Shown: positions 5,209-50,699, counted from the stretch's first letter. The stretch is DNA of 64,000 nt from an uncultured Armatimonadetes bacterium (GCA_963716175.1 OY970296.1:3904001-3968000), one strand, 5' to 3'. Notes: a model not told the origin generated them from the letters alone. Made by a program: numbers and translations.

Positions 5209-7653
5209 GGCCCAGTCCGCCTCGGGAGGCGGCCTTCTCCGACGCGGCCCGGCAGAGCGCCCTTCAGGGGCCCCATCGCGCGGAAGGCGCGGCACGATGA
5301 GGACCAAGGAGCCGTACACCAGCGCCGCGGCGAGGAGGCAGCCATTGAAGCCGATGAGCTTCCCTCCCGCGGCGGCGAGCACGCTTCCCACCACAGACAT
5401 GAGGCCGTTGAAACCCCACACCCAGGGCACATCTCCCTGCCTGGCGCCGGACATGAGTCGGAGGCCGCTGGGAAACGGGACGCCCAGCGCGATTCCCAGG
5501 GGTACCAGCAGCACGCCGGTCGCCAGCAGTTTCCCGGGAGTGGACACGTGTAGAAGCGATGACAGCACCGGTGATAGGGCCAGCGTGTAGGCCGCGGCGA
5601 TGGCGCAGACCATGGCGGCCGCTGCCATGGTGCGGCGAGGCAGCATCTCCGCCGGCCAGCGCTGGCTCATCCCGCTCCCCAGGCTGGCGCCGATCAGCAG
5701 CCAGAACAGGATCCCGGCCAGGCTCAGCGTGGGATGCCCCAGGAACAAGATGAACTTCTGGATCAGCGGGATCTCCACCAACATGAAGCCAATGCCCAGA
5801 GCGCCGAAGTAGACCAGCCACGCCTGTGGCCCGCGTTCCCTCTGCGGCCGTCGCCAGAGCAGCGCACCGCTGAAGAGCGCGCCCAGGCCGAAGCTGCCCA
5901 GAAGGAACCAGAGCAGCACCCTCGGGGCGCCGAAGGAACGGTCGAGGAAGAAGGGCCGGTCATCGGTGGCCGGGCGCAGGTCCGAACGCGCGTCACCGTC
6001 TGGCAGGCCGGCCGCGAACACCTCCGGCAGCGTCGCCGCGCCGGAGGCGACCTCTGCCACCAGGCGATGACCGCCCAGGCCGGGGAGGAAGACCATTTCC
6101 GCCAGTCCGGCCTCGATCGCTCGCCGCAGCCGGCCGAGATCATCCGCAGTCAGTGGGGACCGCTTCCAGATCAGGAGGTAGCGGTAGGGTGTCTCGACCT
6201 CCTCGCCCCCGGGGAGAGCGAGAAGGGCGAGATGGCGACACGCCTGCTGAGCATCGGTGCCCTGCTCCTGCATCACCGCGATGGCGGTGAACGCAGCCCG
6301 CAGCAACAGCGGCCCGGACTCGGTCACCAGGGTATAGCGCCCTTGCGGGGCGAGGTGGCGGAAGTAGTCTGAGAACGCCTCCTGGGTGTGGATATACGAC
6401 TCGACCAGAGCCTGCCCGGCGCCGGGCGCGGTCGCAGTCTGAGTCAGCGTGGAGCTGATGAGGTCATATTGCTGGCGGGAGCGGCGCACGAAACTGCGCC
6501 CGTCCTCTATGCTCACCGTAACGCCCGGCCACTGGTAGAGATTCCCGTTGAGGCCCCGGTAGCGGTCCATCATCGCCGCTACGGAGGCGTTGACCTCGAC
6601 GCCCTCCATCTTGCTGAAGCCGGCCAGCAGGCCCCAGAGGAAGTCTCGCCCGGCGCCGGGCCCGATAGAGAGCACGGTGCTGTGAGGGGAGAGGTCGTAC
6701 CCGATGAACGGCAGCTCGCGGCGGAGCTGGGAGAGAGAGCTCGAGTCGCCGTGGAACGGCGTCATCTGGGATGGGGTCCCGCCGTCGGTGTAGAGCTGGA
6801 GACTATAGAGACCGGCCTCGGGCGAGTCGTAGCGGACGAGATCCGTCCTGGCGTAGGCCGACCAGTCCCGATCCAGAGTGGACCCGATCTGACCAGATCC
6901 GGCGGCCTCCTGCACCATCGCCTTCGTCACCGCCGACGGCGCCCCCGCCAAGGGGCGAATCCGGAGATAGTCGGCCCTCACACTCGCGGGCCAGGAGGCC
7001 GCCAGGAAGACCACCGTGGCCACGCTGGCGAAGAACAGACCGTGGTCTCGTCGGGAGAGCGCCCAACAGGCCGCCCCGATGCCAGCCAGTCCGCCCAGGG
7101 GAAAGGCCATGTGGAGCGCGCCGGTCAGCCCCATCAGAGGCACGACGAGAACCGCGGCGAGCGCGGCCCCGAAGAGATCGGCCTGGTAGAGACGGCCGCT
7201 TTCCGAGACCTGCTCGCGGAAAACCTCAGCCAGAAACGCGCCGGCGAAGATGAAGGGCAGAACCGGGATCAGGGCAGCCCAGAGGTGGGCCGCGATAATC
7301 GCTGAACTGCCGAAAAGCAGGGCGATGCTCCAGGGTATCAGCAGCGCGAAGCCCAGCCCCGCCCAACCCACCTCAGGGCCGGCGGGCAGGCCCACCTCGC
7401 GGCGGACCCGCGCGCTCCGCTGGAGCAGGTGCCAGCCCAAGCCACCCAGCCCCAACCCGCACATGGCGCCGGAAACGGCCACGAAAGCGTAGTGATAGTC
7501 GAACAGGACGGAGTAGACGCGGGTGAGGCTGACCTCAAAGGCCAGCACCACGAAGGACACGAGGAAGACACTTGCCAACACCGACCACCCGCCACACGGC
7601 CGGCGGGCAACCTGGCGCGGGTGGGACCCTTCGCTGCGCTCAGGACGAGCCAT
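5205..7653 (-). CDS. Polytopic membrane protein with central spermidine-synthase-like SAM-binding domain
   Basis: TM blocks flank SIGPGAGRD, VEVN, EDGRSFV and PATDDRPFF. The 3' end is uncertain: either fused to the ankyrin domain or ending at TGA 5205 if 2 bp are missing near 5280. Confidence 0.8.
7627..7650 (-). repeat. Short repeat (GTCCTGAGCGCAGCGAAGGG family)
   Basis: Similar to 9629-9652 and 21396-21420. Confidence 0.6.
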
Positions 7654-7920
7654 GGCAACGCCTTGCCCTGCCGGATTGGGCGGCGAGCCCAGTTTATGGG
7701 GCGAGTCGGCCGCTGTCAATGGCGTGCAGCAGGGCGCGTCATCTCAGTTTCGGAAGCAGCGGCCCCAATGCGAGAGCTGTGCCAGCCCCAAGACCCCCTG
7801 ATTGTGGAATAAGTGTCTTACGCGGGAGGCGTCGGTTTGGCCAAGCCGTCGTGCTTGGGCGTATCTGGGCTGGCCGGCAGACGCGCCCCGGGGAAAGCCA
7901 CCACGCGACAACTGCAGCCC

Positions 7921-9618
7921 ATGGCCAACGCCCGAGAGCTAGCTGCCCATCTTCCCATCGTCCGCGCGCTGGCAGCGCGGTCCGCGGCTCGCCGCGCTCT
8001 GATCGCCGCCGATCCCTTCCGGAAGAGCGAGATACAGGAGGAGCGGCTCTGGCTGCTCGCCCTGCTGATCATCTTCCTGCTCTCCGTGAGCCTTTTCCTG
8101 CTCACGGCCACCGAGGATGCCCGGGGGTCGATTCCGGCCTTGGCGATGCCTCTCATGGCCGTGCTGGGCAGCGACATCACCACCTGCTTCCTGCTGGTCA
8201 TGGTGCTGCTGATCACCGCGTACATTCGCGAACGCCTGGCCGAACGCTGGCGGGAGAACCGCCGCCTGGTCGAGCAGCTCACCGCGAAAGAGCGGGCGCT
8301 GAAGAAGAAGGATGCCCAGCTCACCACCTGGGGCGAGCTCAGCCATGCGCTGATCGCGAACTTCGATCTGCCCCGGCTGCTGGATCTGATCGTGACCACC
8401 GCCATCGAGGTGACGGGCGCGGACCGGGGCTCGGTGATGCTGCTCGATGAGAACGATGGGACGCTCTCTATCAAGGCCGCGAAGGGCCTCGGGGCGGAGG
8501 TGGCCAGCGCCACCAAGCTCCGACTGGGCGAGGGGATCGCGGGCCGAGTGGCGCTGACGGGGAAGCCACTGCTGCTGCGCCGCGGCGAGGGACAGCTCGC
8601 GCTGCGGCCGCTGCGTCGCCGAGAAATGCAGATCTCATCGGCGATTTCAGTGCCGCTCCGCATTGAGGACCGGATCGTGGGCACCCTCAATGTCAATGAG
8701 TCGGGGCGGGTCAGCGAGTTTGGAGACGAGCACCTGCGGGCCCTGACCCTCTTCGCCGACCAGGCCGCCCTGGCGCTGGAGAAGGCGCAGCTCTACCGCG
8801 ATTCCCAGCGGCAACTGGAGAAGCTGCTCTCGGTGCTGGACGAGCTGAGCCGGACCCAGGCGCAGCTCGTGCACTCCGAAAAGCTGGCCTCCCTGGGGGT
8901 GCTGGCCGGCGGCGTGGCGCACGAGATCAACAACCCGCTGATGGTGATCCTGGGCCGGACAGAGCTGATGCTGATGGATGAGGACCTGCCCGGCGATGTC
9001 AGAAGCAACCTGGAGACCATCCGGGTGGAGACCGAGCGCATCGCCGAAATCGTGCTGGGCCTGCTCACGTTCGCCCGCAAGAGCCGCCAGGAGAAGATGG
9101 AGACCCTGGATGTGAACGAGGTGCTGGACCGGACGCTGATGCTGAGCGAGCATCAGCTCACCCTGGGCAATGTGCGGGTGGTCAAGGAGCTGGACGCGCA
9201 TCTGCCGGCCATTCAGGCCAACCCAGGGCAGCTCCAGCAGGTCTTCATGAACCTGATGATCAACGCCCACCACGCCATGCCCAACGGGGGCCAGCTCACG
9301 GTACGCACGGGACCGGTGCCCCAGCACCGGGTGTTCATCGAGATCGAGGACACCGGCTGCGGCATTCCCGCCGAGGACCTGAACCGCATCTTCGACCCGT
9401 TCTTCACCACCAAGGAGGAAGGAAAGGGCACCGGCCTGGGCCTCTCGGTGAGCCGCAATATCATCGAGAACCACGGGGGCATCATCGGGGTGGAGAGCAC
9501 GGTCGGCCTGGGCACCCTGTTCCGCGTGGTGCTGCCTGAGGAGTCTCCGGTTCCGGCCAGTCCCCAGACTCCGGTCAGCATCAGCGATCTCACGCAGCGG
9601 GCCACCTTCTCCTTGTAG
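7921..9618 (+). CDS. Membrane sensor histidine kinase, 2TM-GAF-HisKA-HATPase (no adjacent response regulator)
   Basis: GVAHEINNPL H-box, NLMINA N-box, DTGCGI, FDPFFTTK, GTGLGL and a GAF segment. Start uncertain (7813 or 7921). Confidence 0.92.
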   Translation: MANARELAAHLPIVRALAARSAARRALIAADPFRKSEIQEERLWLLALLIIFLLSVSLFLLTATEDARGSIPALAMPLMAVLGSDITTCFLLVMVLLITAYIRERLAERWRENRRLVEQLTAKERALKKKDAQLTTWGELSHALIANFDLPRLLDLIVTTAIEVTGADRGSVMLLDENDGTLSIKAAKGLGAEVASATKLRLGEGIAGRVALTGKPLLLRRGEGQLALRPLRRREMQISSAISVPLRIEDRIVGTLNVNESGRVSEFGDEHLRALTLFADQAALALEKAQLYRDSQRQLEKLLSVLDELSRTQAQLVHSEKLASLGVLAGGVAHEINNPLMVILGRTELMLMDEDLPGDVRSNLETIRVETERIAEIVLGLLTFARKSRQEKMETLDVNEVLDRTLMLSEHQLTLGNVRVVKELDAHLPAIQANPGQLQQVFMNLMINAHHAMPNGGQLTVRTGPVPQHRVFIEIEDTGCGIPAEDLNRIFDPFFTTKEEGKGTGLGLSVSRNIIENHGGIIGVESTVGLGTLFRVVLPEESPVPASPQTPVSISDLTQRATFSL

Positions 9619-40824: not shown

Positions 40825-41628
40825 TCAGGTGGTCGCCGGCGCCTGTCCCGCGGCCGCGCTCTTAGTAGCCGCCTTCAGAAACGGGGTGAACAGATCAATG
40901 GGGATCGGGAACAGGGTGGTGGAATTGTTCTCCGAGGCCACCTCAGCCAGAGTCTGAAGGAACCGGAGCTGGAGGGCGATGGGCTGAGTGGCGATGATGT
41001 TGCCTGCGTCCGCCAGCCGCTGGGCGGCTTGGAACTCACCCTCGGCGTTGATGATCTTGGCCCGGCGCTCGCGCTCGATCTCGGCCTGGCGGGCCATGGC
41101 TCGCTTCATGCTGTCGGGCAGGATGACATCCCGCACCTCCACCATCGAGACCTTGATCCCCCAGGGCTCGGTGTGCTCGTCAATGATCTCCTGCAGGCGC
41201 TGGTTGACGCGGTCCCGCGCGGCCAGCAGCTCGTCCAGCTCGGATTGGCCGATCACACTGCGCAGGGTGGTCTGGGCCAGCAGATAGGTGGCCTTGTTGA
41301 AGTTGCGCACCTTCACCACCGCGTCGGCGGGCTCGAGCACCCGGTAATAGACCACCGCGTCCACCGTGACCGGCACGTTGTCCCGGGTCATCATCTCTTG
41401 GCGCTGCACGTCAATGGTCTCGATGCGGGTGCTGATGCGCTCCATCCGGTCCACGATGGGGATGAGCAGAATCAGGCCGGGCCCTTTCACCGGGATCAGA
41501 CGGCCCAGGCGGAAGATCACCGCCCGCTCGTACTCCCGCAGAATCCTGATTGCGGCCGCCAGCACGATGATGAAGAACACCACCACCGCGATCACGACCG
41601 CTAGGCCATAGCTTGCTTGGGTTGCCAC
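40825..41628 (-). CDS. SPFH/stomatin (slipin) family protein
   Basis: [29 protein letters not shown]. Confidence 0.95.
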
Positions 41629-41655: not shown

Positions 41656-43047
41656 TCAAGTCTTCGCCGAGTCGCGAGCCGCCGCCTCCCGCTGCTGCAC
41701 CAGCAGGGTGAGGCCGTCCTGGCCCACCACCTCGACTTCTTCTCCCTCCCCGATTTCGCCTGCCACCGCGCGCGCCCGCCACCGCTCTCCCTCCACCAGC
41801 ACCTCTCCCCTGGGGCTCAGCCTCCCCAGGGCCCGCCCGCGCTGGCGCAGCAGCCCCTCCTCGCCGGTCCGCACTTTGCGCATGTGGGCGCGCACCGCGG
41901 CCCCGGTGACGAAGAGGAAGAAGAGCGTCACCAGCAGGGCCATCACCACGATCACCTGCCAGGAGACCCGCAGCCAGGGGGCCGAGGACCCGGTCAGCAT
42001 GAGCGCGCCCATCACAAAGGAGATCACACCCCCGACTGTCAAGATGCCGTGAGACACCACTTTCACCTCCGCCAGAAAGAGCAGCATGGAGAAAACGATC
42101 AGCCCCACTCCCGCGTAGTTCACCGGCAGCACCGCCATGGAGTAGAGCGCCAGCAGCAGACAGAGCCCTCCGATCACGCCCGGCAGGATGGCGCCAGGAT
42201 TCTGCAGCTCGAACATAATCCCCAGGCCGGCCAGCACCAGCAGCACGAGCAGCAGGTTCGGGTTCCCCAGCACATGGAAAAAGCTCTCCCTGGCGGTAGG
42301 CGAGATCTCGGTCACAGCCGCGCCTGCGGTCTCCAGCGTCACCTCTCGCTTGCCAGGGAGCGACACCTTCCAGCCGTTGATCTTGGCGAGCAGATCCTTG
42401 GGGTCTTCGGCCAGCAGGTCAATCACGTGCAGGCGGAGGGCATCCTTCGCGGTGAGCGTGGCACTCTGCCGCACCGCCCTCGTAGCCCAGTCCGCGTTCC
42501 GCCCCCGCTCCTCCGCGATCACCCGGATCTGCTCCGCGAAGGCGTTGACCACTTTCTGCGTCATGATATCCGGGGAAACCGGAGCTTGCTTTCCCTCCTT
42601 GCCTCCCTCCGGCTGCTCGGGCTTGGGCAGGGAGAGCATCTCCACGGGATGAGCGGCGCCGATGGTAGTGGCCGGATGCATGGCGGCGATGTTCGCAGCC
42701 AGGGTGACGAAGGTGCCGGCCGAGAAGGCGGAGGCCCCTGCGGGGTAGACGTAGACGATGGTGGGGAGGGGGGAGTTGAGCAGGCTCTTGGTCATGTCCA
42801 TCATGGACTCCCCCAGGCCACCGGGGGTGTTCAGTAGAATCAGCAGCGCCTGCGCGTGCTGCCTTCGCGCCTCCGAGAGGGCCCGCTCCAGGTACTCCGC
42901 AGAGGGAACATCAATGGCGCCATCCAGCCGGATCATGGCCACCGGCGGCGGGGCCGTCCACGCCGAGCCTGCCACGCCGCCGGCGGGCAGACCCACCAGC
43001 AGACCGGCGAGGAGCAGGCCCAGCGCCCATTTCGACCATAGCCCCAT
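41656..43047 (-). CDS. nfeD: NfeD family membrane serine protease (long form)
   Basis: NTPGG, ASAFSAG, IGAAHP, TM block, C-terminal OB domain GERWRA. Confidence 0.92.
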   Translation of the reverse strand: MGLWSKWALGLLLAGLLVGLPAGGVAGSAWTAPPPVAMIRLDGAIDVPSAEYLERALSEARRQHAQALLILLNTPGGLGESMMDMTKSLLNSPLPTIVYVYPAGASAFSAGTFVTLAANIAAMHPATTIGAAHPVEMLSLPKPEQPEGGKEGKQAPVSPDIMTQKVVNAFAEQIRVIAEERGRNADWATRAVRQSATLTAKDALRLHVIDLLAEDPKDLLAKINGWKVSLPGKREVTLETAGAAVTEISPTARESFFHVLGNPNLLLVLLVLAGLGIMFELQNPGAILPGVIGGLCLLLALYSMAVLPVNYAGVGLIVFSMLLFLAEVKVVSHGILTVGGVISFVMGALMLTGSSAPWLRVSWQVIVVMALLVTLFFLFVTGAAVRAHMRKVRTGEEGLLRQRGRALGRLSPRGEVLVEGERWRARAVAGEIGEGEEVEVVGQDGLTLLVQQREAAARDSAKT

Positions 43048-44361
43048 CAGAACTCCGATCGCTTTGGGCGCATCCAGGTGGTGGCCTGCCAGCAGGGCAG
43101 GCCCTGCTCGGCGTTGCCGAACTCGCCCGGCAGCTCGCCCCCTGACAGCCCGCGCAGGCCGCGAACCATCAGCAGCGCCACCAGGAAGAAAGGCAGCACA
43201 GCCCACGGCGCCTGCTCGCGGAAGAGATTCTCGGCCTTGGCATAGCCCAGCCAGATAACCCCGCCGGCGGCCGCGACGAGAGACTTGAGAATCTGCTTCG
43301 TCCGCCGCCGGGCGCGCAGAGGGCCCGCGCGCTTCTGCTCACCCCGCTCCACACAATCCAGGCACTGCAGCGCGACCCGGGGCCAGTCGCCAGTGGGGCT
43401 CTGCCGCAGGAAGCCCAGCTCGACGCGGGCATCGTCCCACTTCTCCTGCATGCGGAGGCTGCAGGCCAGCATGGAACGCACCGCGATGCGGGGGCCGCTG
43501 CTGCCGGCCTGGCGCTGGAAATGCTCCTCGGCGGCGGGGTAGTCCCGGAGATGATAGCGGGCCAGGCCCAGGGCCGTCTCCGCCCGGAAGTCGCCCGCCG
43601 CATGGTCGAGCGCCTGCTGCAAGGCCTCGGCCGCCTCCCGATTGGCGCGAGAACAAACAGGTCACCCCGAGATTCCACCAGGCATCGGTATCGTAAGGCT
43701 CGGCCTTTGCCGCGGCTCTGAAGACCTGTCGCGCGCCCTTGAACTTGCCGATCACCACATCGGCCCGGCCCAACTGCACCAGGGCGTGCGCCTCCCGGCC
43801 ATACTCGCGGGCGTCCCGTCGGTACCCTGTGATGGCCTCGGTATCGGCATCGGCGAAGCTGATCGCCAGCTCGGTGTAGGGATCAACGATAGCCTCCCGA
43901 GCCTGCTCCCGGGCCTGGCGCACCCGGCCCCAGTACTGCTCCACTCGGGCATCGTACACCACCAGAGGACGTTCCCGCAGCAGGCCCAGCTCGCGCAGTT
44001 CCTGGCGCGTCTCCCAGGCGCGCTGTCGGTCCGCGGCTTGCTCGCCGGCCGCCTGGAGGACCTGGCCGTCCCCTTCAGCCTTGGGCGGCTCGGGCCGGCC
44101 CCAGACATCGGTGACCAGCACCTCGCCCATGCCGGCAGGCACCGGTTCGGTCAGCAGAGAGCGGGCCTGCGACAGATCGGGTGCCGGTGGCGCACCCTCC
44201 TCGGCCTCGTCGCCCTCCGCCTCCGCGGTGGCGGGACCGACCGGCCTCGCTTCCTCCAGATCCCCGGTGGCTACGCCGCCAACGGCGACCGCGGCGCCGG
44301 CCGGGGGCCAGGCCACTTGCCCAGTCTCTCTCTCCTTTGGCTCCATCTCCACTTGGGTCAA
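43047..44361 (-). CDS. TPR protein with acidic N-terminus and C-terminal TM helices (frameshift near 43647)
   Basis: ORFs 43339-44361 and 43047-43622 join mid-TPR (AWWNLGVTC...NREAAEALQQAL). Stop overlaps the nfeD ATG. Confidence 0.72.
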
Positions 44362-44473: not shown

Positions 44474-46120
44474 CTAGGTAGCGCTGGCCAGCACGCGCTG
44501 GAAGGCGGCTACGGCCTCGGGGTCATATTTCGTCCCGGCATGTGCCGCCAGCTCGGCCAGCGCCTCCGCCTCCGACCGTGCCGGTCGGTAGGGTCGGTCG
44601 GCGGTCATGGCGGCGACGACGTCGGCCACCGCCAGCACCCGCGCGCCCAGCGGAATCTCGTCTCCCATCAGACCCTCGGGATACCCGCTGCCGTCCAGTC
44701 TCTCATGATGATACCGCACTGCGGGCTTGATTGACCAGGGAAATTCCAGCGCATCGAGGATCTGCACCCCCACCAGCGGGTGGGTGCGGACGATCTCGGC
44801 CTCCAGCGGGGTGAGTGGCCCTGGCTTGAGCAGGATCATATCACTGATGCTGACCCGGCCAATGTCGTGAACTCGCGCGGCCACGCGAATTCCTTCCGCG
44901 ATGTCGTCTGGGCAGCCCATCTCCCTGGCAATGGCGAGCGCCAGCCGCGCCACCCGGTCGGCGTGGCCCCGGGCGTAGCGATCCCGGGCCTCCACCGCCC
45001 GCGTCAGCGCGCGTACCACCGCGTACATCGCCTGCCGGTCGGGCTGAGCCGAGGGCGGCGCGGCGGCGGTCCGCTCTTCCCCCGAGAGGTAGTCCTCGAG
45101 CCGCGCCCCCCGATCTCGCTGCCGCTCCGCCAGGAAGGAGGCGACCAGAGCATTGACGGGCCGCACGCCCTCATCGGCAGTCTCCGTCAGCCCCTCCACC
45201 ACCGCCGCCTGAGCGTCGCCAGAAAGCGCAGCCAGCGCGGCCTCTCGCGCCGGCTCCTTGAGCCGCTCCCAGAGCAGAGTCAAAACGGGCTCGAGTTGCT
45301 CGCGGGCGCGGGAGCGGATGTACCAGCGCTGCTCCTCGGTCAGCGGAATCTGCCCCGACTTGCATTCGAACACTTCGTAAGCCACCACCTGCAGGTAATA
45401 GGGCCAGCCCCCGGCCAGCTCCAGCAGGAAATCGCGCTCAGCCGAGAGGTCCACGCCAGACTCCTCGGCGAGAGCGCAGACGTGGCGCCAGGCCAGCTCC
45501 GGGTCGAGGCCGCGCAGGTGGACGATGGAGAAGAGGTCAGCGAAAGGCGAGCCGACCTCCCGCCCGGCGATCTCGATCTCGTGCAGCCGGCACTCGGTGG
45601 CAGTGACGAAGCATACCCCCGGGTGGGCAGCAAGGTGGCGCAGGGCGGAGAAAAAGTTGAGATCGAAGGCCGGGTTCCTGGCGGCCAGCTCCACCTCGTC
45701 CAGGAGGAAAACCAGGCGCTCGCCGGCCACCTCGATCTGCTCCAGGATCTCCTCCAGCTCGAGGAAGCTGAGCGCATCGCGGGCCTTGATGTGGGGCCAG
45801 ACCACGGTGATCTTGCCGGTGGTCTGGCGCGCCAGCTCCTGCACCATGAGGTGGAAGAACTGCTCGGCGCTGATGGTGCCCAGCCCTTCGAAGCTGAGAT
45901 GAACCGCGGCGTGCTGAGCCGGCGATAGCCCGTGGCCGGCCAGGGCGCTGGGGCGGGCGAGGTGGAGCAGAAGCGACGTCTTTCCTGACTTCACCGGCCC
46001 CACCAGGGAGCAATTCTGACTGCCCGCCACCAGGCGCACGACCTCTCGCGTCTCTCTGGGGCGCCCAAAGTAGAACCTGGCCTCCGTGATCGGGCCCCGG
46101 TTGAAGAATGGATTCGTCAT
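44474..46120 (-). CDS. STAND-type P-loop ATPase fused to an HD-GYP phosphodiesterase
   Basis: NPFFNRGPI..FGR, Walker A GPVKSGKTS, Walker B LLDEVE, AGGWPY; HDIG, HHERLDGSGYP, DRPYR. Confidence 0.9.
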   Translation of the reverse strand: MTNPFFNRGPITEARFYFGRPRETREVVRLVAGSQNCSLVGPVKSGKTSLLLHLARPSALAGHGLSPAQHAAVHLSFEGLGTISAEQFFHLMVQELARQTTGKITVVWPHIKARDALSFLELEEILEQIEVAGERLVFLLDEVELAARNPAFDLNFFSALRHLAAHPGVCFVTATECRLHEIEIAGREVGSPFADLFSIVHLRGLDPELAWRHVCALAEESGVDLSAERDFLLELAGGWPYYLQVVAYEVFECKSGQIPLTEEQRWYIRSRAREQLEPVLTLLWERLKEPAREAALAALSGDAQAAVVEGLTETADEGVRPVNALVASFLAERQRDRGARLEDYLSGEERTAAAPPSAQPDRQAMYAVVRALTRAVEARDRYARGHADRVARLALAIAREMGCPDDIAEGIRVAARVHDIGRVSISDMILLKPGPLTPLEAEIVRTHPLVGVQILDALEFPWSIKPAVRYHHERLDGSGYPEGLMGDEIPLGARVLAVADVVAAMTADRPYRPARSEAEALAELAAHAGTKYDPEAVAAFQRVLASAT

Positions 46121-49100
46121 CGTGGTCCCCCCTGCCTCAACCAGAGTGAGAGCAGGCCCACTTGCAGAACGCACTGGCCGGCCTGCTCTGCTACCAGCTC
46201 CGAGGCTGCTAACGCTCTCACTGCTCTTCGCACGCCAGCGGAATCGAGACCCGTAACCCGCCTCAGTTCGTCAACGCTGAGCCCGCCTTTGCCGAGGCTA
46301 CGGTCGCCGGGCCTGGACTGGTGGCCGGCAAGCGCGCCGAGGATCGGCTGCCCCTGGGGGCCAGCGCTCTCCCAGAGGTATCGGAGATGGATGTCGCCCT
46401 GCTCTACCACGTCGGCCGCCGCCTCCTCGACCAGGCTCACGCGAACCGCCGCCTCCTGCAACTGGACACAGCGCTCAACCAGGCGGTAGCCCAGGAGCTG
46501 GAGGAGATAGGGGTTCCTCCCGGTGAGCGTGATGGCCCGGGCCAGCGCGGCCTCTTCGCAGACTACGCCCAATCTGCCCAAGGGAACGCGGATCACCTGC
46601 TCGGCCACCTCGGGCTTGAGGCATCCGATCCTGCGGTGGGTGGCGAGATTGAGAAGAAAGGACCAGTGCTCGCCTGCCAGCTCCTCCAGCCGATCACTGC
46701 CAGAGAGCACGAAGCTGATGTTGCGGCTGTGTTGGATCAGGTGGCGGAGCTGAGAGAATACCTCCGGGCCCAGCACCCCGGTTCGCACCTTCTGCTCCAG
46801 GTCGTCGAACTCGTCCAGCAGCAAGACCACCCGGCCTTCCAGGCGGTCGGCTGCCTCCTGCACCTGCTCGGGCCCGCTGCTATAGCTGTCATAGGGCGCC
46901 GCGCCAGCCTCCCTGACCATGGGCTCCGAGGCCTTGGGTAGCGCCCGCCGCGCCAACTCCTGGAAGAAGGCGCCTGTGTCGTCCACCAGCATCCCTTGCA
47001 CATCAATGAAGGTGGGACGACACCACTGCGCCAGCCTGGCCTCCAGCCGCTTCAGCAAGCTGGTCTTGCCGGTGCGCCTCTGGCCCACCAGCACCACCAC
47101 GTTGCCCTCGTCGCCGCTGGTCAGGGCCCGCTCGACAAAGGCGATCTCGGCCGCGCGGCCAAAGAACATGGCGCTGTCTGCCGCCAGGGGCTTGCCCACG
47201 ACGTAGGGGTTGGCAACGGCCATGAGCGGAGTAGGCCGCACCGCCTGTACGCGGTCGGCGATCGCCTGACTGTGCCAGCCTAAGGCATCGCGAAACCGGA
47301 CCAGTCCGCGAACAGTGCGGGTCCCGGGCCGGGTGTGCCTGACCTCTATGCCTACCTGCGCTTCCTCGCCGGGCCTGAGGCAGGCAATGTCCTGCACCGG
47401 CGCTCCCTCCATCCCCACTAGCAGGTCCCAGGCGCGGCCTTGGCCCGCGTTCTCGATGCTCATGAGCAGCAGGGAGCCAGGCCCGGCGACCAGATGCTGC
47501 GAGACAAGAGCCACGCGCAGGTCGGCCGGCGCGGCCTCCTGCGCCACCCGGTCTACCAGCAGCTCCCAGTTGTGCAGGATTGGAAGCACCAGGGGCCAGT
47601 AGGCCCGTTCCCGGTCGTGGGTTGGACCCGCCGCGAGCGCGGCGCGGGCACGCGCCAGGTAGCGGTCGCGGGAGAGGCGAGAGCGCGCTCGCACCGCCTG
47701 CTTCATCATCTTGGCTGCGGCCACCACAAAGGAGACTGCGTCGAAACTGGCAGCGGGACAGGTCGCGGCCTGGCGCACCACGTCCTCGGGAGTGGCGGCG
47801 TCAGCGCAGTCCCCCAGCCAGGACAGGACCTCGGCGAGATCATCGCGCTCGACGAAGCGTAATGCCAGGGACAGATCGCGCAGCGCCTCGCCCAGGTCCT
47901 CTCCTCCCTCTAGGGCCCGCGCGGCGCAGCGCGCGAGCTCAGCCACCTCTGGGGTGCGGGCGCACCGCGCCACCTGCCAGATCACGCTGGTGGTCGCCGC
48001 CCGCAGGGGCCACCAGTAGAAGACCACCGGCAGCCGCTTCGGGTCTTGGTCGAAGGCAGCGGCAATGCCTTCGGCCGCGGCCAATGCCGTGGCCTGGTTG
48101 CTGGCGAGCGAAACCAGCTGCTCCCACATGGGGCCGGGCAGGTCGAGCATGTGCCGACAGAGAGTGCGGGTGGCGGCGAGGGCAGCCGGCGCATGCCGGT
48201 CTCCCGTTAGGCGAAGCAGCAGGTCCACCTCGGGCACGCCTCGGGGCTCCAGAGAGGCGGCGGCCGCGGCCCGCACCATCGGCTCGCGGTCCACACTTGC
48301 CGCCAGAAGGGCGCCGTGGACACCCACCGCGCCCAGGGACCTGATCGCCGCCGCCCGGACCATGACTGCTCGATCGCCGGCCAACTGCTGCAGGAGATTG
48401 GCCACTCCCTCCCCTCTCGGCCCTTCGACTCCCCCCCGGCCAGGCCTGGCGAGGGCTTCTGCCACCGCGGCACGGACCTCCGGGGAGCGGTCCGCGGCCA
48501 GACGGGAGAGCAAGGCAGGTGGCGCAAGCTCTCGATGTGCCGCAAGCACCCCGGCCGCGGCCGCCCTCACCGCTGCGCTGCGGTCCCGGGTCAGCGGCGG
48601 GAGGCAAGCTGCTGCCCAGCGCCAACCCTCTGCGGCCCACCTACCAAGGGCAGGAACAACGAGGGCGCGAACCTGAGGATCGCGGTCGGCGAGGCAGAGC
48701 TGAGCGGCGCGGGACAGGCCGCGGCCAGAGAGGTGCGGCAAAGCTGGGGCCACCGCCTTCCTTCCGGCTGCCCCGGACTCGGCCAGGCGGAGCAGAAGGC
48801 GGGCCGCGATGGCAGGCCGAACGGGTGATAGGTCCACCGCGCCGAAGGCGACGCCGGAGAGAACGCGCTGGTCTGCGCTGGCTAGAGCAGTGTCGAGCCA
48901 GGAAAGCGCTCGCCGGATGGCCGCACCCCTCGCCTGGCCCAGTGCGGCGGCCGCCGCCCAGCGCATCTCGCCATTGGGGTCGGTGAGCCGCCGCCCCAGT
49001 TCATCCACCGCCCAGGCCGAGCCGTCCCCTGCCTCCTCCTCCATCCCGGACAGAGCGGCCAGGCGCACGGTGCGCTCCGGGTGGCGGCCCAGCGCCAGCA

Positions 49101-49434
49101 GCTCTTCTCGAAAGCGGCCCTGCTGCTTGCCCAAAGCCATTCCCGCAGGGAGCGAGGAGGTGGGATCGCCTGCTGTGACCAGATCAATCACTAGCTTCGG
49201 CTGTGAGCAGGCGAGCTGGCGCAGCCCGGGAACGGCTGCCTTGGGAGGAAGGGAGAGCCGGCCTTGAGCGACATCGAAGAGGAAACGGCGCGCCCACCCC
49301 CCGCGCGCCGCCAGTCCGCCCAGCTCCTGCCAGGCGGCAACCGCTCTGTTTGCGTCGCTACCCCAGACTGCCCGGCACACCGCCCTCAGGTCCAAGCCTT
49401 CCGGAGCCTGTCCTCTACCCCGTGGCCGGCGCAT
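46117..49434 (-). CDS. HEAT-repeat + Ig-like + STAND ATPase + wHTH protein
   Basis: Many D....VR..AA.AL repeats; NPYVVGKP..FFGR, GQRRTGKTS, LLDEFD, GRNPYLLQ; ATGA overlap with the next gene. Confidence 0.88.
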   Translation of the reverse strand: MRRPRGRGQAPEGLDLRAVCRAVWGSDANRAVAAWQELGGLAARGGWARRFLFDVAQGRLSLPPKAAVPGLRQLACSQPKLVIDLVTAGDPTSSLPAGMALGKQQGRFREELLALGRHPERTVRLAALSGMEEEAGDGSAWAVDELGRRLTDPNGEMRWAAAAALGQARGAAIRRALSWLDTALASADQRVLSGVAFGAVDLSPVRPAIAARLLLRLAESGAAGRKAVAPALPHLSGRGLSRAAQLCLADRDPQVRALVVPALGRWAAEGWRWAAACLPPLTRDRSAAVRAAAAGVLAAHRELAPPALLSRLAADRSPEVRAAVAEALARPGRGGVEGPRGEGVANLLQQLAGDRAVMVRAAAIRSLGAVGVHGALLAASVDREPMVRAAAAASLEPRGVPEVDLLLRLTGDRHAPAALAATRTLCRHMLDLPGPMWEQLVSLASNQATALAAAEGIAAAFDQDPKRLPVVFYWWPLRAATTSVIWQVARCARTPEVAELARCAARALEGGEDLGEALRDLSLALRFVERDDLAEVLSWLGDCADAATPEDVVRQAATCPAASFDAVSFVVAAAKMMKQAVRARSRLSRDRYLARARAALAAGPTHDRERAYWPLVLPILHNWELLVDRVAQEAAPADLRVALVSQHLVAGPGSLLLMSIENAGQGRAWDLLVGMEGAPVQDIACLRPGEEAQVGIEVRHTRPGTRTVRGLVRFRDALGWHSQAIADRVQAVRPTPLMAVANPYVVGKPLAADSAMFFGRAAEIAFVERALTSGDEGNVVVLVGQRRTGKTSLLKRLEARLAQWCRPTFIDVQGMLVDDTGAFFQELARRALPKASEPMVREAGAAPYDSYSSGPEQVQEAADRLEGRVVLLLDEFDDLEQKVRTGVLGPEVFSQLRHLIQHSRNISFVLSGSDRLEELAGEHWSFLLNLATHRRIGCLKPEVAEQVIRVPLGRLGVVCEEAALARAITLTGRNPYLLQLLGYRLVERCVQLQEAAVRVSLVEEAAADVVEQGDIHLRYLWESAGPQGQPILGALAGHQSRPGDRSLGKGGLSVDELRRVTGLDSAGVRRAVRALAASELVAEQAGQCVLQVGLLSLWLRQGGPR

Positions 49435-49657
49435 CTGCCCCTCTCGCCGAGGGCCAATGAGGACCCCAAATCGGCACGAGCGACTCAGCGTCTTAATACC
49501 ACATGACCAGGCCCTTATCCTTCTCGCGGACTCCGATTCGCCGCCAGGATGCCCAAATCCAGGGGAACGACCCGCGGCTGAAGGCTTCCCCCTTCGCCAA
49601 AGGCTTCGCCGGGCGTGTCGGCATGGCCGCGCAGCAGCAAGGTCGGGCACAAGGATA

Positions 49658-49686
49658 TTGCCTCGGGCGGCGGATTGTGGTAGAAT
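49658..49686 (+). promoter_or_regulatory. Putative sigma70 promoter
   Basis: TTGCCT-17-TAGAAT with TGn. Confidence 0.55.
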
Positions 49687-49742
49687 CACATGGGCTATTG
49701 TTTGGGGGAGCGCGCATATCAGTTAGACGAGGAGTGCGAGGG

Positions 49743-50699
49743 ATGCGCGGGAGCTGTCTAGCCATCGCCCTGCTGCTGATGCTGGGCGCGGCGCAGACGT
49801 TATGGGCAGGTCCTTTTACTGAAGTTCCCAGCGGACACTGGGCATACGGCGCCTGCGGGCGGCTGGCCGAGCTGGGGGTGCTGGGGTCCGAGCGGGCGAG
49901 CGCCTTCTCGGGCAATCCGCAGCTCACTCGCTTCGAGTTCGGGGTGGCCATCCTGGAGCCGCTGACCGAGGTGGACCGGGCGATGGCCGCGCTGCCGCCG
50001 GAGCCGGAGGTCAAGACGGCCCGGAACGCGGTGACGCGGGCCCTGCGAGTCAGCCCCTATTCCTCGGAGGACCAGATTGCCGCCGGTGCGGCCGATCTGC
50101 GCCGCCTCAGCGGCGAGTTCGGCGATGTGCTGCGCGGGCTGGGCTTCGAGCCGGGCCGGGCAGCGCGCGGCCTCCAGGCTCTGGACGCAGCCGGCCTGAG
50201 AGAGTGGAGGGCGGAGGCTCTCTCCGCGCCGGGCCGAGCCTTGATGGCTCTGACTCCGGCGAGAAGGGCGGATGACGCACTCCGCGTGCCAGTGGGACAC
50301 GGGACGGTGGCTCTGAGCTATGACCGCGATCTGAGGCCGCCGGAGGTGATGGATTACCTGGCTGCCTCTGCGGCCGAGCGTGGGACCAAGCCCGATGCCT
50401 CCGGGAACGCTGAGCCAGCGCTGCGCGATCCCCTGGTTTCTCGGCTGCGCACCGCGTACGAATATGGGCTGGGGTCGGCTCTCACGCTCAGCCTGGCCTA
50501 CGAGGAGATCGCCCGCCGGGGGCAGGGGCTGGCGCCCTTGGACAGCGCCTCGTTCGCCTCCCTGGGCATCGGATACCGGTTGACTCCATCGGCCTCGGTG
50601 AAGCTATCGTATTCGCTGCTGGAGTACTCCAACTACGTCGTGGACAGCCCGCCCCTGCGCGACCGAATGGCCGAAACCGCGGTCTCTATCGGGTTCTAG
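49743..50699 (+). CDS. SLH-domain exported protein with a beta-strand C-terminus (OM tether-like)
   Basis: Signal peptide, FTEVPSGHWAY, LTRFEF; amphipathic strands ending in Phe. Confidence 0.72.
   Translation: MRGSCLAIALLLMLGAAQTLWAGPFTEVPSGHWAYGACGRLAELGVLGSERASAFSGNPQLTRFEFGVAILEPLTEVDRAMAALPPEPEVKTARNAVTRALRVSPYSSEDQIAAGAADLRRLSGEFGDVLRGLGFEPGRAARGLQALDAAGLREWRAEALSAPGRALMALTPARRADDALRVPVGHGTVALSYDRDLRPPEVMDYLAASAAERGTKPDASGNAEPALRDPLVSRLRTAYEYGLGSALTLSLAYEEIARRGQGLAPLDSASFASLGIGYRLTPSASVKLSYSLLEYSNYVVDSPPLRDRMAETAVSIGF

Follow-up and report, generated by a model that had tools for sequence, protein, structure and literature searches.

Can an NLR-like ATP switch be wired to the breakdown of a cyclic dinucleotide? 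The question is raised by two neighbouring genes, here called A and B, in the genome of an uncultured member of the Armatimonadota (GCA_963716175.1). They lie in a stretch of 64,000 nucleotides (OY970296.1:3904001-3968000; hereafter the window) with a GC content of ~0.68, drawn from a 4.56-Mb single-contig genome that is 90.85% complete. An earlier reading of this stretch, the original prediction, had described two overlapping genes for STAND ATPases, one with a long repeat arm and the other with an HD-GYP domain. It had proposed that they act as a split sensor/helper pair in signalling or defence. Open reading frame (ORF) calling and translation place both genes exactly where they had been put, as neighbours on the minus strand: A at 46117..49434 (1105 amino acids, ATG at 49434) and B at 44474..46120 (548 amino acids), with the stop codon of A and the start codon of B sharing an ATGA at 46117..46120. 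A and the nSTAND2 ATPase of B are each single-copy in the source genome. Operon ends were left undefined by a promoter and terminator scan, which returned weak consensus matches (three promoter-like and five terminator-like, against 0.5 and 3.3 in shuffled sequence). The answer that we put forward, and regard as roughly an even bet, is that A and B form an ATP-dependent hetero-oligomeric switch that gates the hydrolysis of cyclic di-GMP (c-di-GMP), or possibly cyclic GMP-AMP (cGAMP), by B for signalling.

Gene A encodes four predicted domains, assigned from Pfam, an alignment of 22 homologues and an AlphaFold2 model (predicted local distance difference test score, pLDDT, 83.7). Most of the chain is an all-helical HEAT/ARM-like solenoid (residues 16-633; 47536..49389, on the minus strand like every feature below unless marked otherwise). 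Pfam finds HEAT_2 in four stretches (1.1e-17) and HEAT (8.5e-12), the modelled helices mostly exceed a pLDDT of 85, and Foldseek matches the solenoid to PP2A PR65, Integrator subunits and karyopherins at E 1e-9 to 1e-5. A beta-sandwich of Ig-like appearance follows directly before the ATPase (residues 639-732; 47239..47520); it is modelled with eight strands in a block of pLDDT 82-91 and has no match in the Pfam scan. The STAND nucleotide-binding module (residues 742-1040; 46315..47211) is recognized by AAA_22 (9.4e-13) and by nSTAND1 (PF20703; 36.2 bits, above the gathering cut-off of 27.1), and the archaeal Walker ATPase 2qen is among its best Foldseek matches. In the model, the ATPase and helical domain span residues 760-1040 and the module is closed by a winged helix (residues 1054-1100; 46135..46275) built as helix-helix-strand-strand-helix. 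Pfam sees this last element only as a weak MarR_2 match (residues 1050-1083, E 0.0072). That A might be a MarR-type regulator was considered and rejected, given the weakness of this match and its position where STAND modules carry their winged helix. The motifs of the ATPase are NPYVVGKP...FFGR, Walker A GQRRTGKT, Walker B LLLDEFDD and the GxP motif GRNPY. Invariant across the 22 homologues are N742 and P743, G747, K748 and P749, and F757, G759 and R760 in the first of these; G784, G789, K790 and T791 in Walker A; D874 and E875 in Walker B; and G972 and P975 in the GxP motif (TGRNPY).

Gene B joins a STAND module to a signalling enzyme, as judged from Pfam, NCBIfam, an alignment of 21 homologues, a structural model (pLDDT 82.5) and Foldseek. 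The ATPase, helical domain and winged helix (289-338) occupy residues 1-338 (45107..46120), and a disordered linker (338-358) leads to the HD-GYP domain (residues 362-547; 44480..45037). The ATPase matches nSTAND2 (PF20702) at 30.0 bits against a cut-off of 24, over profile positions 111-231 only. Its Foldseek matches begin with the archaeal structures 2qen and 2fna and continue with the ZAR1 and NRC resistosomes, ORC/Cdc6 and Avs3; Apaf-1 is also among them. The recognizable motifs are NPFFNRGP...FGR, Walker A GPVKSGKT, Walker B FLLDEVE, GSPFADLF and the GxP motif GGWPY. N3, P4, G9 and P10 are conserved across the homologues, G46, K47 and T48 of Walker A and D141 of Walker B are invariant, E142 is kept in at least 90%, and around the GxP motif P240 is kept in at least 90% and Q244 is invariant. 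The HD-GYP domain is matched by HD_5 (8.6e-37, 126.9 bits, residues 372-535) and HD (2.2e-17), to which NCBIfam adds HD-GYP-type similarity only. Foldseek pairs it with DvhD (9rbz), PmGH (4mcw) and PA4781 (4r8z). Its residues H386, D419, H447, H471, H472, E473, G477, G479, Y480 and P481 are invariant, and H418 is kept in at least 90%.

Thus the HEAT repeats of A, and the intact STAND motifs of both proteins together with the HD, HHE and GYP motifs of B, are borne out by Pfam and by conservation. The Ig-like domain and winged helix that had been read in A hold at the level of predicted fold. In both families the Walker A, Walker B and GxP residues vary little or not at all, and both ATPases look active. 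Arginines also fall at places aligned between the two proteins: R897 of A and R161 of B are invariant and R915 of A is kept in at least 90%.

The two ATPases are, by alignment, paralogues: residues 735-1101 of A and 1-345 of B are 29% identical over 320 columns (E 7e-11). Relatives of each extend well beyond this locus. Residues 640-1105 of A align as one unit (81-99% coverage) with Chloroflexi proteins bearing GAF, Cache or propeller N-termini, and across other phyla the same C-terminal unit of beta-sandwich, ATPase and winged helix sits behind GAF, Cache+HAMP+GAF, FG-GAP propeller or TPR domains. The ATPase of B has 2326 relatives at E <=1e-3 in a protein library clustered at 50%, and nSTAND2 was found in all 78 of those scanned with Pfam. 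Fused to these 78 are protein kinase, TIR, CHAT, OmpR-type DNA-binding, BTAD, nucleotide cyclase, PP2C, calcineurin-like, HD-CE, EAD7, TCAD9, DUF835 and HD-GYP domains. Effector swapping, which the original prediction had raised as a question, is therefore real at the level of the family. An OmpR-type DNA-binding output recurs among the closest relatives of B that lack HD-GYP, in all four from a word-indexed search and in more of the Pfam-scanned set.

Natural fusions and gene orders join the two ATPase types elsewhere. In the 751-residue protein P0270, the N-terminal half matches B (E 4e-36) and the C-terminal half matches residues 735-1105 of A end to end (E 3e-31); P0255 (882 residues) is a similar single chain. 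Both place the B-type module first and the A-type second, and both are without a HEAT arm or HD-GYP domain. As separate genes, the A-type precedes the B-type in an unrelated armatimonadotal genome (G033; L149 7186-10991), where an 829-residue ATPase+TPR gene overlaps a 439-residue nSTAND2 gene by 4 nucleotides. The same order is seen in a member of the Chloroflexota (G303; L201 8248-14564), where a 1598-residue protein with ATPase, WD40 and phosphonate-binding domains is followed after 213 nucleotides by a 435-residue nSTAND2 protein. The C-terminal ~130 residues of these two nSTAND2 partners (435-439 residues) gave nothing credible in Pfam. Two further loci (L196 and L197; L197 2817-7005) run from ATPase+PEGA through TPR/DUF5683 to an nSTAND2-only gene.

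Is the pairing of A with B more than an accident of one genome? A survey of 301 Armatimonadota genomes, searched with A and B, included 14 from the family of the window (f1) and two from its sister family (f5). Full-length B was too unspecific as a query for a contig search, in which HD-GYP matches dominated (78 loci kept, of which one, L053, was a full-length relative); the genome search took its place, together with a metagenome scan that was seeded with an alignment of the N-terminal domain of B and gave 50 loci. Full-length A-like genes were found in 11 of the 14 f1 genomes and in one f5 genome, all other matches being to the ATPase only, and B-type HD-GYP genes were confined to f1 and f5, where both f5 genomes have them. 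A and B are adjacent in nine of the 11 f1 genomes that match both (G045, G142, G272, G212, G220, G115, G151, G106 and G265); the remaining two (G160 and G251) are not assessable, their contigs breaking at this point.

The metagenome loci extend this linkage to more distant relatives. Where B is 58-76% identical, A lies immediately upstream in 37 of 38 loci, and in the remaining one there is no DNA ahead of B. In these 37 loci the stop of A and the start of B are -4 to 102 nucleotides apart; the distance is -4 or -1 in 14 and at most 8 in 23. Many of the 37 are near-duplicates, so they are not independent. In eight loci with B at 37-42% identity, a HEAT+AAA_22 protein (1154-1170 residues where complete, one being cut at a contig end) lies upstream in four of the six that are assessable; two lack it and two are too short upstream. 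The pair persists at a B identity of 40-42%. By contrast, the three genomes of genus g3 (92-96% complete) have no match to either query, and in the two g3 loci examined the upstream gene of no assigned family, the TPR gene, the NfeD gene and the Band 7 gene are contiguous, with A and B cleanly missing. A and B have been lost as a unit in this genus. The linkage first noticed in the window therefore extends across genera and into divergent relatives. Judged from gene order, the pairing is old and usually kept, and B can stand without an adjacent A.

How might such a pair work? We propose that the two paralogous NLR-like ATPases, which are probably co-expressed, would come together by their nucleotide-binding modules as a hetero-oligomer that depends on ATP. 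A would supply its ~620-residue HEAT solenoid and beta-sandwich as a protein- or ligand-binding input or as a scaffold, and B would supply the HD-GYP phosphodiesterase as output. Ligand binding would then trigger nucleotide exchange and oligomerization, gathering or releasing the HD-GYP domains and so switching the hydrolysis of c-di-GMP, or possibly 3'3'-cGAMP, on or off. The complex would probably work with the products of the downstream genes, a membrane TPR protein, an NfeD protease and an SPFH scaffold. We infer that A binds B, which way control runs, what the substrate and the ligand are, and that NfeD and SPFH are involved. Of the original prediction, the pairing and the modular outputs are supported by the paralogy, tight linkage and co-loss of the two genes, by the fused two-ATPase chains and by the alternative outputs of the family; sensing by the HEAT arm and gating of the phosphodiesterase are proposals, and the defence half is weakened, as discussed below.

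Several observations weigh against this proposal. Both f5 genomes keep B ahead of TPR-NfeD-Band 7 without an adjacent A. One of them (G032) has its A-like gene on a different contig, beside a GH38 gene, and in the other (G178), although it is 97% complete, a search at E 1e-10 brought up nothing A-like. Two metagenome loci (L193 and L194) carry DUF4838 glycosidases upstream of B instead of A, and on a third, short contig (L198) the 1.8 kb upstream of B has no A-like match. These cases suggest that B may work alone, and they count against a strict interdependence of A and B. Adjacency within f1 is weak evidence by itself, since the whole region is syntenic in that family. The TPR gene downstream of B is frameshifted in the genome studied here. 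Relatives of the B ATPase carry TIR, CHAT and kinase domains, and nSTAND families were defined as conflict systems. As to the substrate, the best match of the HD-GYP domain among solved structures searched with phmmer is the 3'3'-cGAMP-specific V-cGAP3 (5z7c, 2.5e-39), ahead of the c-di-GMP enzymes at E 1e-28 to 1e-24 (9rbz 1.7e-28, 4mcw 2.2e-28, the range extending to 4.3e-24). With V-cGAP3 at the top, c-di-GMP is not assured as the substrate of B, and sequence alone cannot separate the two specificities.

The B genes without an adjacent A point to an unlikely reading in which the two proteins act independently: B would be a self-oligomerizing, STAND-regulated phosphodiesterase tied to the NfeD/SPFH membrane operon, and A a separate HEAT-STAND scaffold that happens to lie beside it in one lineage. 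This would account for the genes that follow B. Unexpectedly, every metagenome locus with enough DNA downstream of B (34 of 34) has NfeD and SPFH/Band 7 genes there, as have the f1 and f5 genomes; of the 48 B-family metagenome loci, the remaining 14 stop short of NfeD (in L187 only beyond an insertion that precedes the TPR gene). The arrangement holds down to 37% B identity, with or without the TPR gene and an upstream A, and the three downstream genes persist in g3 when both A and B are gone. However, independence sits poorly with an overlap or gap of at most 8 nucleotides in 23 of the 37 loci, with a pair still kept at 40-42% identity and lost together in g3, and with the fusion of the two ATPase types in P0270 and P0255 and the recurrence of the A-type to B-type order in unrelated genomes.

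Improbable, in our estimate, is that the pair is an NLR-like anti-phage or conflict system, in which the HEAT arm of A senses an invader protein and the oligomer activates the HD-GYP domain, so that c-di-GMP collapses or another cyclic dinucleotide is degraded in a dormancy or abortive response. The fold of the B ATPase resembles the ZAR1 and NRC resistosomes and Avs3, relatives of B bear EAD7 and TCAD9 as well as the TIR, CHAT and kinase domains mentioned above, and the architecture follows that of a counter-invader two-gene operon in the part of Kaur et al. 2021 (PMC8195603) covered here. Against this stands the setting of the genes. The block GT4-DUF3084-RuvX-Band7-NfeD-TPR-B-A-unk-LptD_N-ImpE-UROD-PCMT, in which unk is a gene of no assigned family, is co-linear across genera; it is conserved across at least 10 of them, with B at down to 37% identity in the same place. 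By this synteny, the locus is part of a conserved, vertically inherited chromosomal block of housekeeping character and is not mobile. No integrase, transposase or known defence gene was found among the 14 flanking ORFs scanned, and the pair is single-copy, neither patchy nor expanded. Scans with PADLOC-DB 2.0 gave no credible match for A (best E 0.0045, to Csx3-AAA over the P-loop region only); for B they gave only Cas3 HD-domain models over the HD region (8e-7), with nothing below E 1e-3 for its ATPase.

The output of B also fits a conflict role poorly, HD-GYP being a signalling domain with no obvious toxin character. With eight GGDEF matches and nine HD-GYP matches besides B, the genome, which has one nSTAND2, holds many c-di-GMP turnover genes for a size of 4.56 Mb. 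GGDEF and HD-GYP occur together in at least two ORFs, with open frames of 850 (C1:3700921-3702669) and 528 (C1:4501482-4502588) amino acids. A SMODS cyclase search gave no match in this 90.85%-complete genome, and the idea that B antagonizes a CBASS-type signal of its own genome was rejected on that ground. Inherited synteny, the absence of a credible PADLOC match, and many c-di-GMP enzymes without a SMODS cyclase together weaken the defence half of the original signalling-or-defence reading, and the context favours signalling. In the Armatimonadota, the pair looks more like a stably inherited chromosomal signalling device of one lineage than a mobile immune island.

Some HD-GYP proteins signal via protein-protein contacts. 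It is nonetheless highly improbable that the HD-GYP domain of B serves mainly to sense cyclic dinucleotides or to contact other proteins, and less as an enzyme, with the STAND assembly itself as output (e.g. a membrane scaffold): part of an HD-GYP survey (10.1101/2021.11.05.467447) does describe action through protein-protein interactions, but all the HD, HHE, GYP and further histidine residues checked in B are conserved in the 21 homologues and align with those of active enzymes.

The proposed A/B switch can be extended to the genes downstream of B. The first encodes a TPR protein with a C-terminal membrane helix (43050..44361; Pfam TPR_14 and comparison with L133 and L141) and follows B in most loci. 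In the window it is split into two frames near 43650-43670, and in L133 and L141 it is one ORF of 420-466 codons from stop to stop; the frameshift may reflect an indel in the assembly or mark a true pseudogene. In related genomes the protein ends in the membrane helix and a conserved tail (...GELPGEFGNAEQGLPCWQ.TTW). Next comes a gene for an NfeD-type membrane protease (41656..43206; Pfam NfeD_membrane, NfeD1b_N and NfeD), whose true start is probably near 42951, since its homologues align from about residue 85. An SPFH/Band 7 (stomatin-like) gene (40825..41628; Pfam Band_7 7.4e-38) is the last of the same-strand cluster and is co-linear with NfeD in related loci. In L187, an insertion of ~1.5 kb (7009-8562) separates the HD-GYP gene from the TPR gene. 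On the other side of the pair, a divergent ORF of 398 amino acids (49503-50699, plus strand) adjoins A, or the TPR gene in g3, and is followed by an LptD_N-domain gene; it is 51-63% identical among relatives and gave no match in Pfam. A possible, if doubtful, elaboration of our proposal is that ATP-driven assembly of the HEAT-arm and HD-GYP subunits takes place at SPFH/NfeD membrane microdomains and gates the local breakdown of c-di-GMP (or cGAMP), making the pair a new kind of cyclic-dinucleotide input device.

Why would such a switch matter? The HD-GYP and EAL enzymes known so far take their input from small sensor domains of the receiver, PAS or GAF type and the like. If the proposal is true, a STAND switch ahead of an HD-GYP domain would represent a different logic of c-di-GMP control, based on assembly, with a threshold-like response and perhaps a protein ligand as its trigger, and NLR-type switches would serve housekeeping second-messenger control and not immunity alone. 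Its fixed place in the chromosome makes the pair relevant to the question of whether NLR-like proteins of bacteria have regulatory as well as defensive roles. The locus is also a tractable case of a STAND system with two chains, each with an ATPase that looks active. Finally, the NfeD and SPFH genes that come after B in every sufficiently long locus offer a concrete, testable hypothesis for these poorly understood membrane scaffolds.

Among known systems, the closest in output are the RpfG-type HD-GYP proteins, including PmGH (4mcw), PA4781 (4r8z), DvhD (9rbz) and V-cGAP3 (5z7c), which share with B the catalytic domain and its conserved motifs. Their inputs are REC, PAS or GAF domains, whereas the input of B is a STAND ATPase. 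An open-access literature search returned no paper pairing 'HD-GYP' with 'STAND NTPase', and none joining 'NfeD', 'SPFH' and 'c-di-GMP'. The terms 'ATPase', 'AAA', 'NTPase' and 'P-loop' are all absent from the main text of the survey of HD-GYP architectures (10.1101/2021.11.05.467447).

In their switch, A and B resemble several families of STAND ATPases. The best structural matches to both ATPases, the archaeal PABY2304 (2qen) and SSO1545 (2fna) of the Pfam family ATPase_2, share the N-terminal ...F.GR region; these are single-module proteins without HEAT or HD-GYP domains, unlike the multidomain A and B, and identity is ~15%. The features of a STAND ATPase, as reportedly set out by Leipe, Koonin and Aravind in 2004, are Walker A GxxxxGK[ST], Walker B hhhhD[DE], GxP, a winged helix after the helical domain and an arginine finger or sensor. 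Of these, both A and B have the Walker A, Walker B and GxP motifs, conserved as described above, and the winged helix is present in the predicted structures of both. With the Avs/AVAST and bNACHT STAND NTPases the pair has in common a P-loop, helical and winged-helix switch with repeat arms, and Foldseek returns Avs3, ZAR1, NRC and Apaf-1. Unlike in Avs and bNACHT systems, the repeat arm of A precedes the ATPase, a signalling enzyme forms the output, the context is non-mobile and the ATPases find no match among PADLOC families. The paired sensor/helper NLRs of plants and animals, in which two different NLR-like chains enter one oligomer, share the idea proposed here for A and B. Regulatory output from an ATP switch is likewise familiar from the STAND transcription regulators MalT and AfsR. 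It is seen again in the nSTAND2 + Trans_reg_C (OmpR-type) proteins, which are 33-36% identical to B; their output is DNA binding, and that of B is HD-GYP.

The nearest precedent for the two-gene grammar is a computational one. In the part covered here, Kaur, Iyer, Burroughs and Aravind (eLife 2021; PMC8195603) predicted a 'mobile', sporadically distributed two-gene operon in which an X+STAND+wHTH gene precedes an nSTAND2+wHTH+effector gene, and proposed a toroidal hetero-multimer (the operon of their Fig. 6C). Its effector-bearing module has eroded NTP-binding motifs and mostly GT4 or HEPN effectors, and 15 rows of the Fig. 6 source data are proteobacterial. The term 'HD-GYP' is absent from the 12 supplementary files of that paper that were searched (of 13) and from the main text of Kaur et al. 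2020 (PMC7159879). Like this operon, A and B are two co-directional adjacent genes, each with a STAND module and winged helix, the effector being on the second. Unlike it, Walker A and D141 of B are invariant and E142 is kept in at least 90% of homologues, the effector is HD-GYP, and the pair is syntenic and vertically inherited in the Armatimonadota. The original prediction had not recognized a named system here; on the sections of PMC8195603 compared, the grammar of the two genes had already been predicted, and the intact second ATPase, the HD-GYP output and the non-mobile locus differ. The pair thus follows a computationally described, experimentally untouched kind of system, as far as that part of the paper presents it, and its HD-GYP output, active-looking B and fixed locus set it apart.

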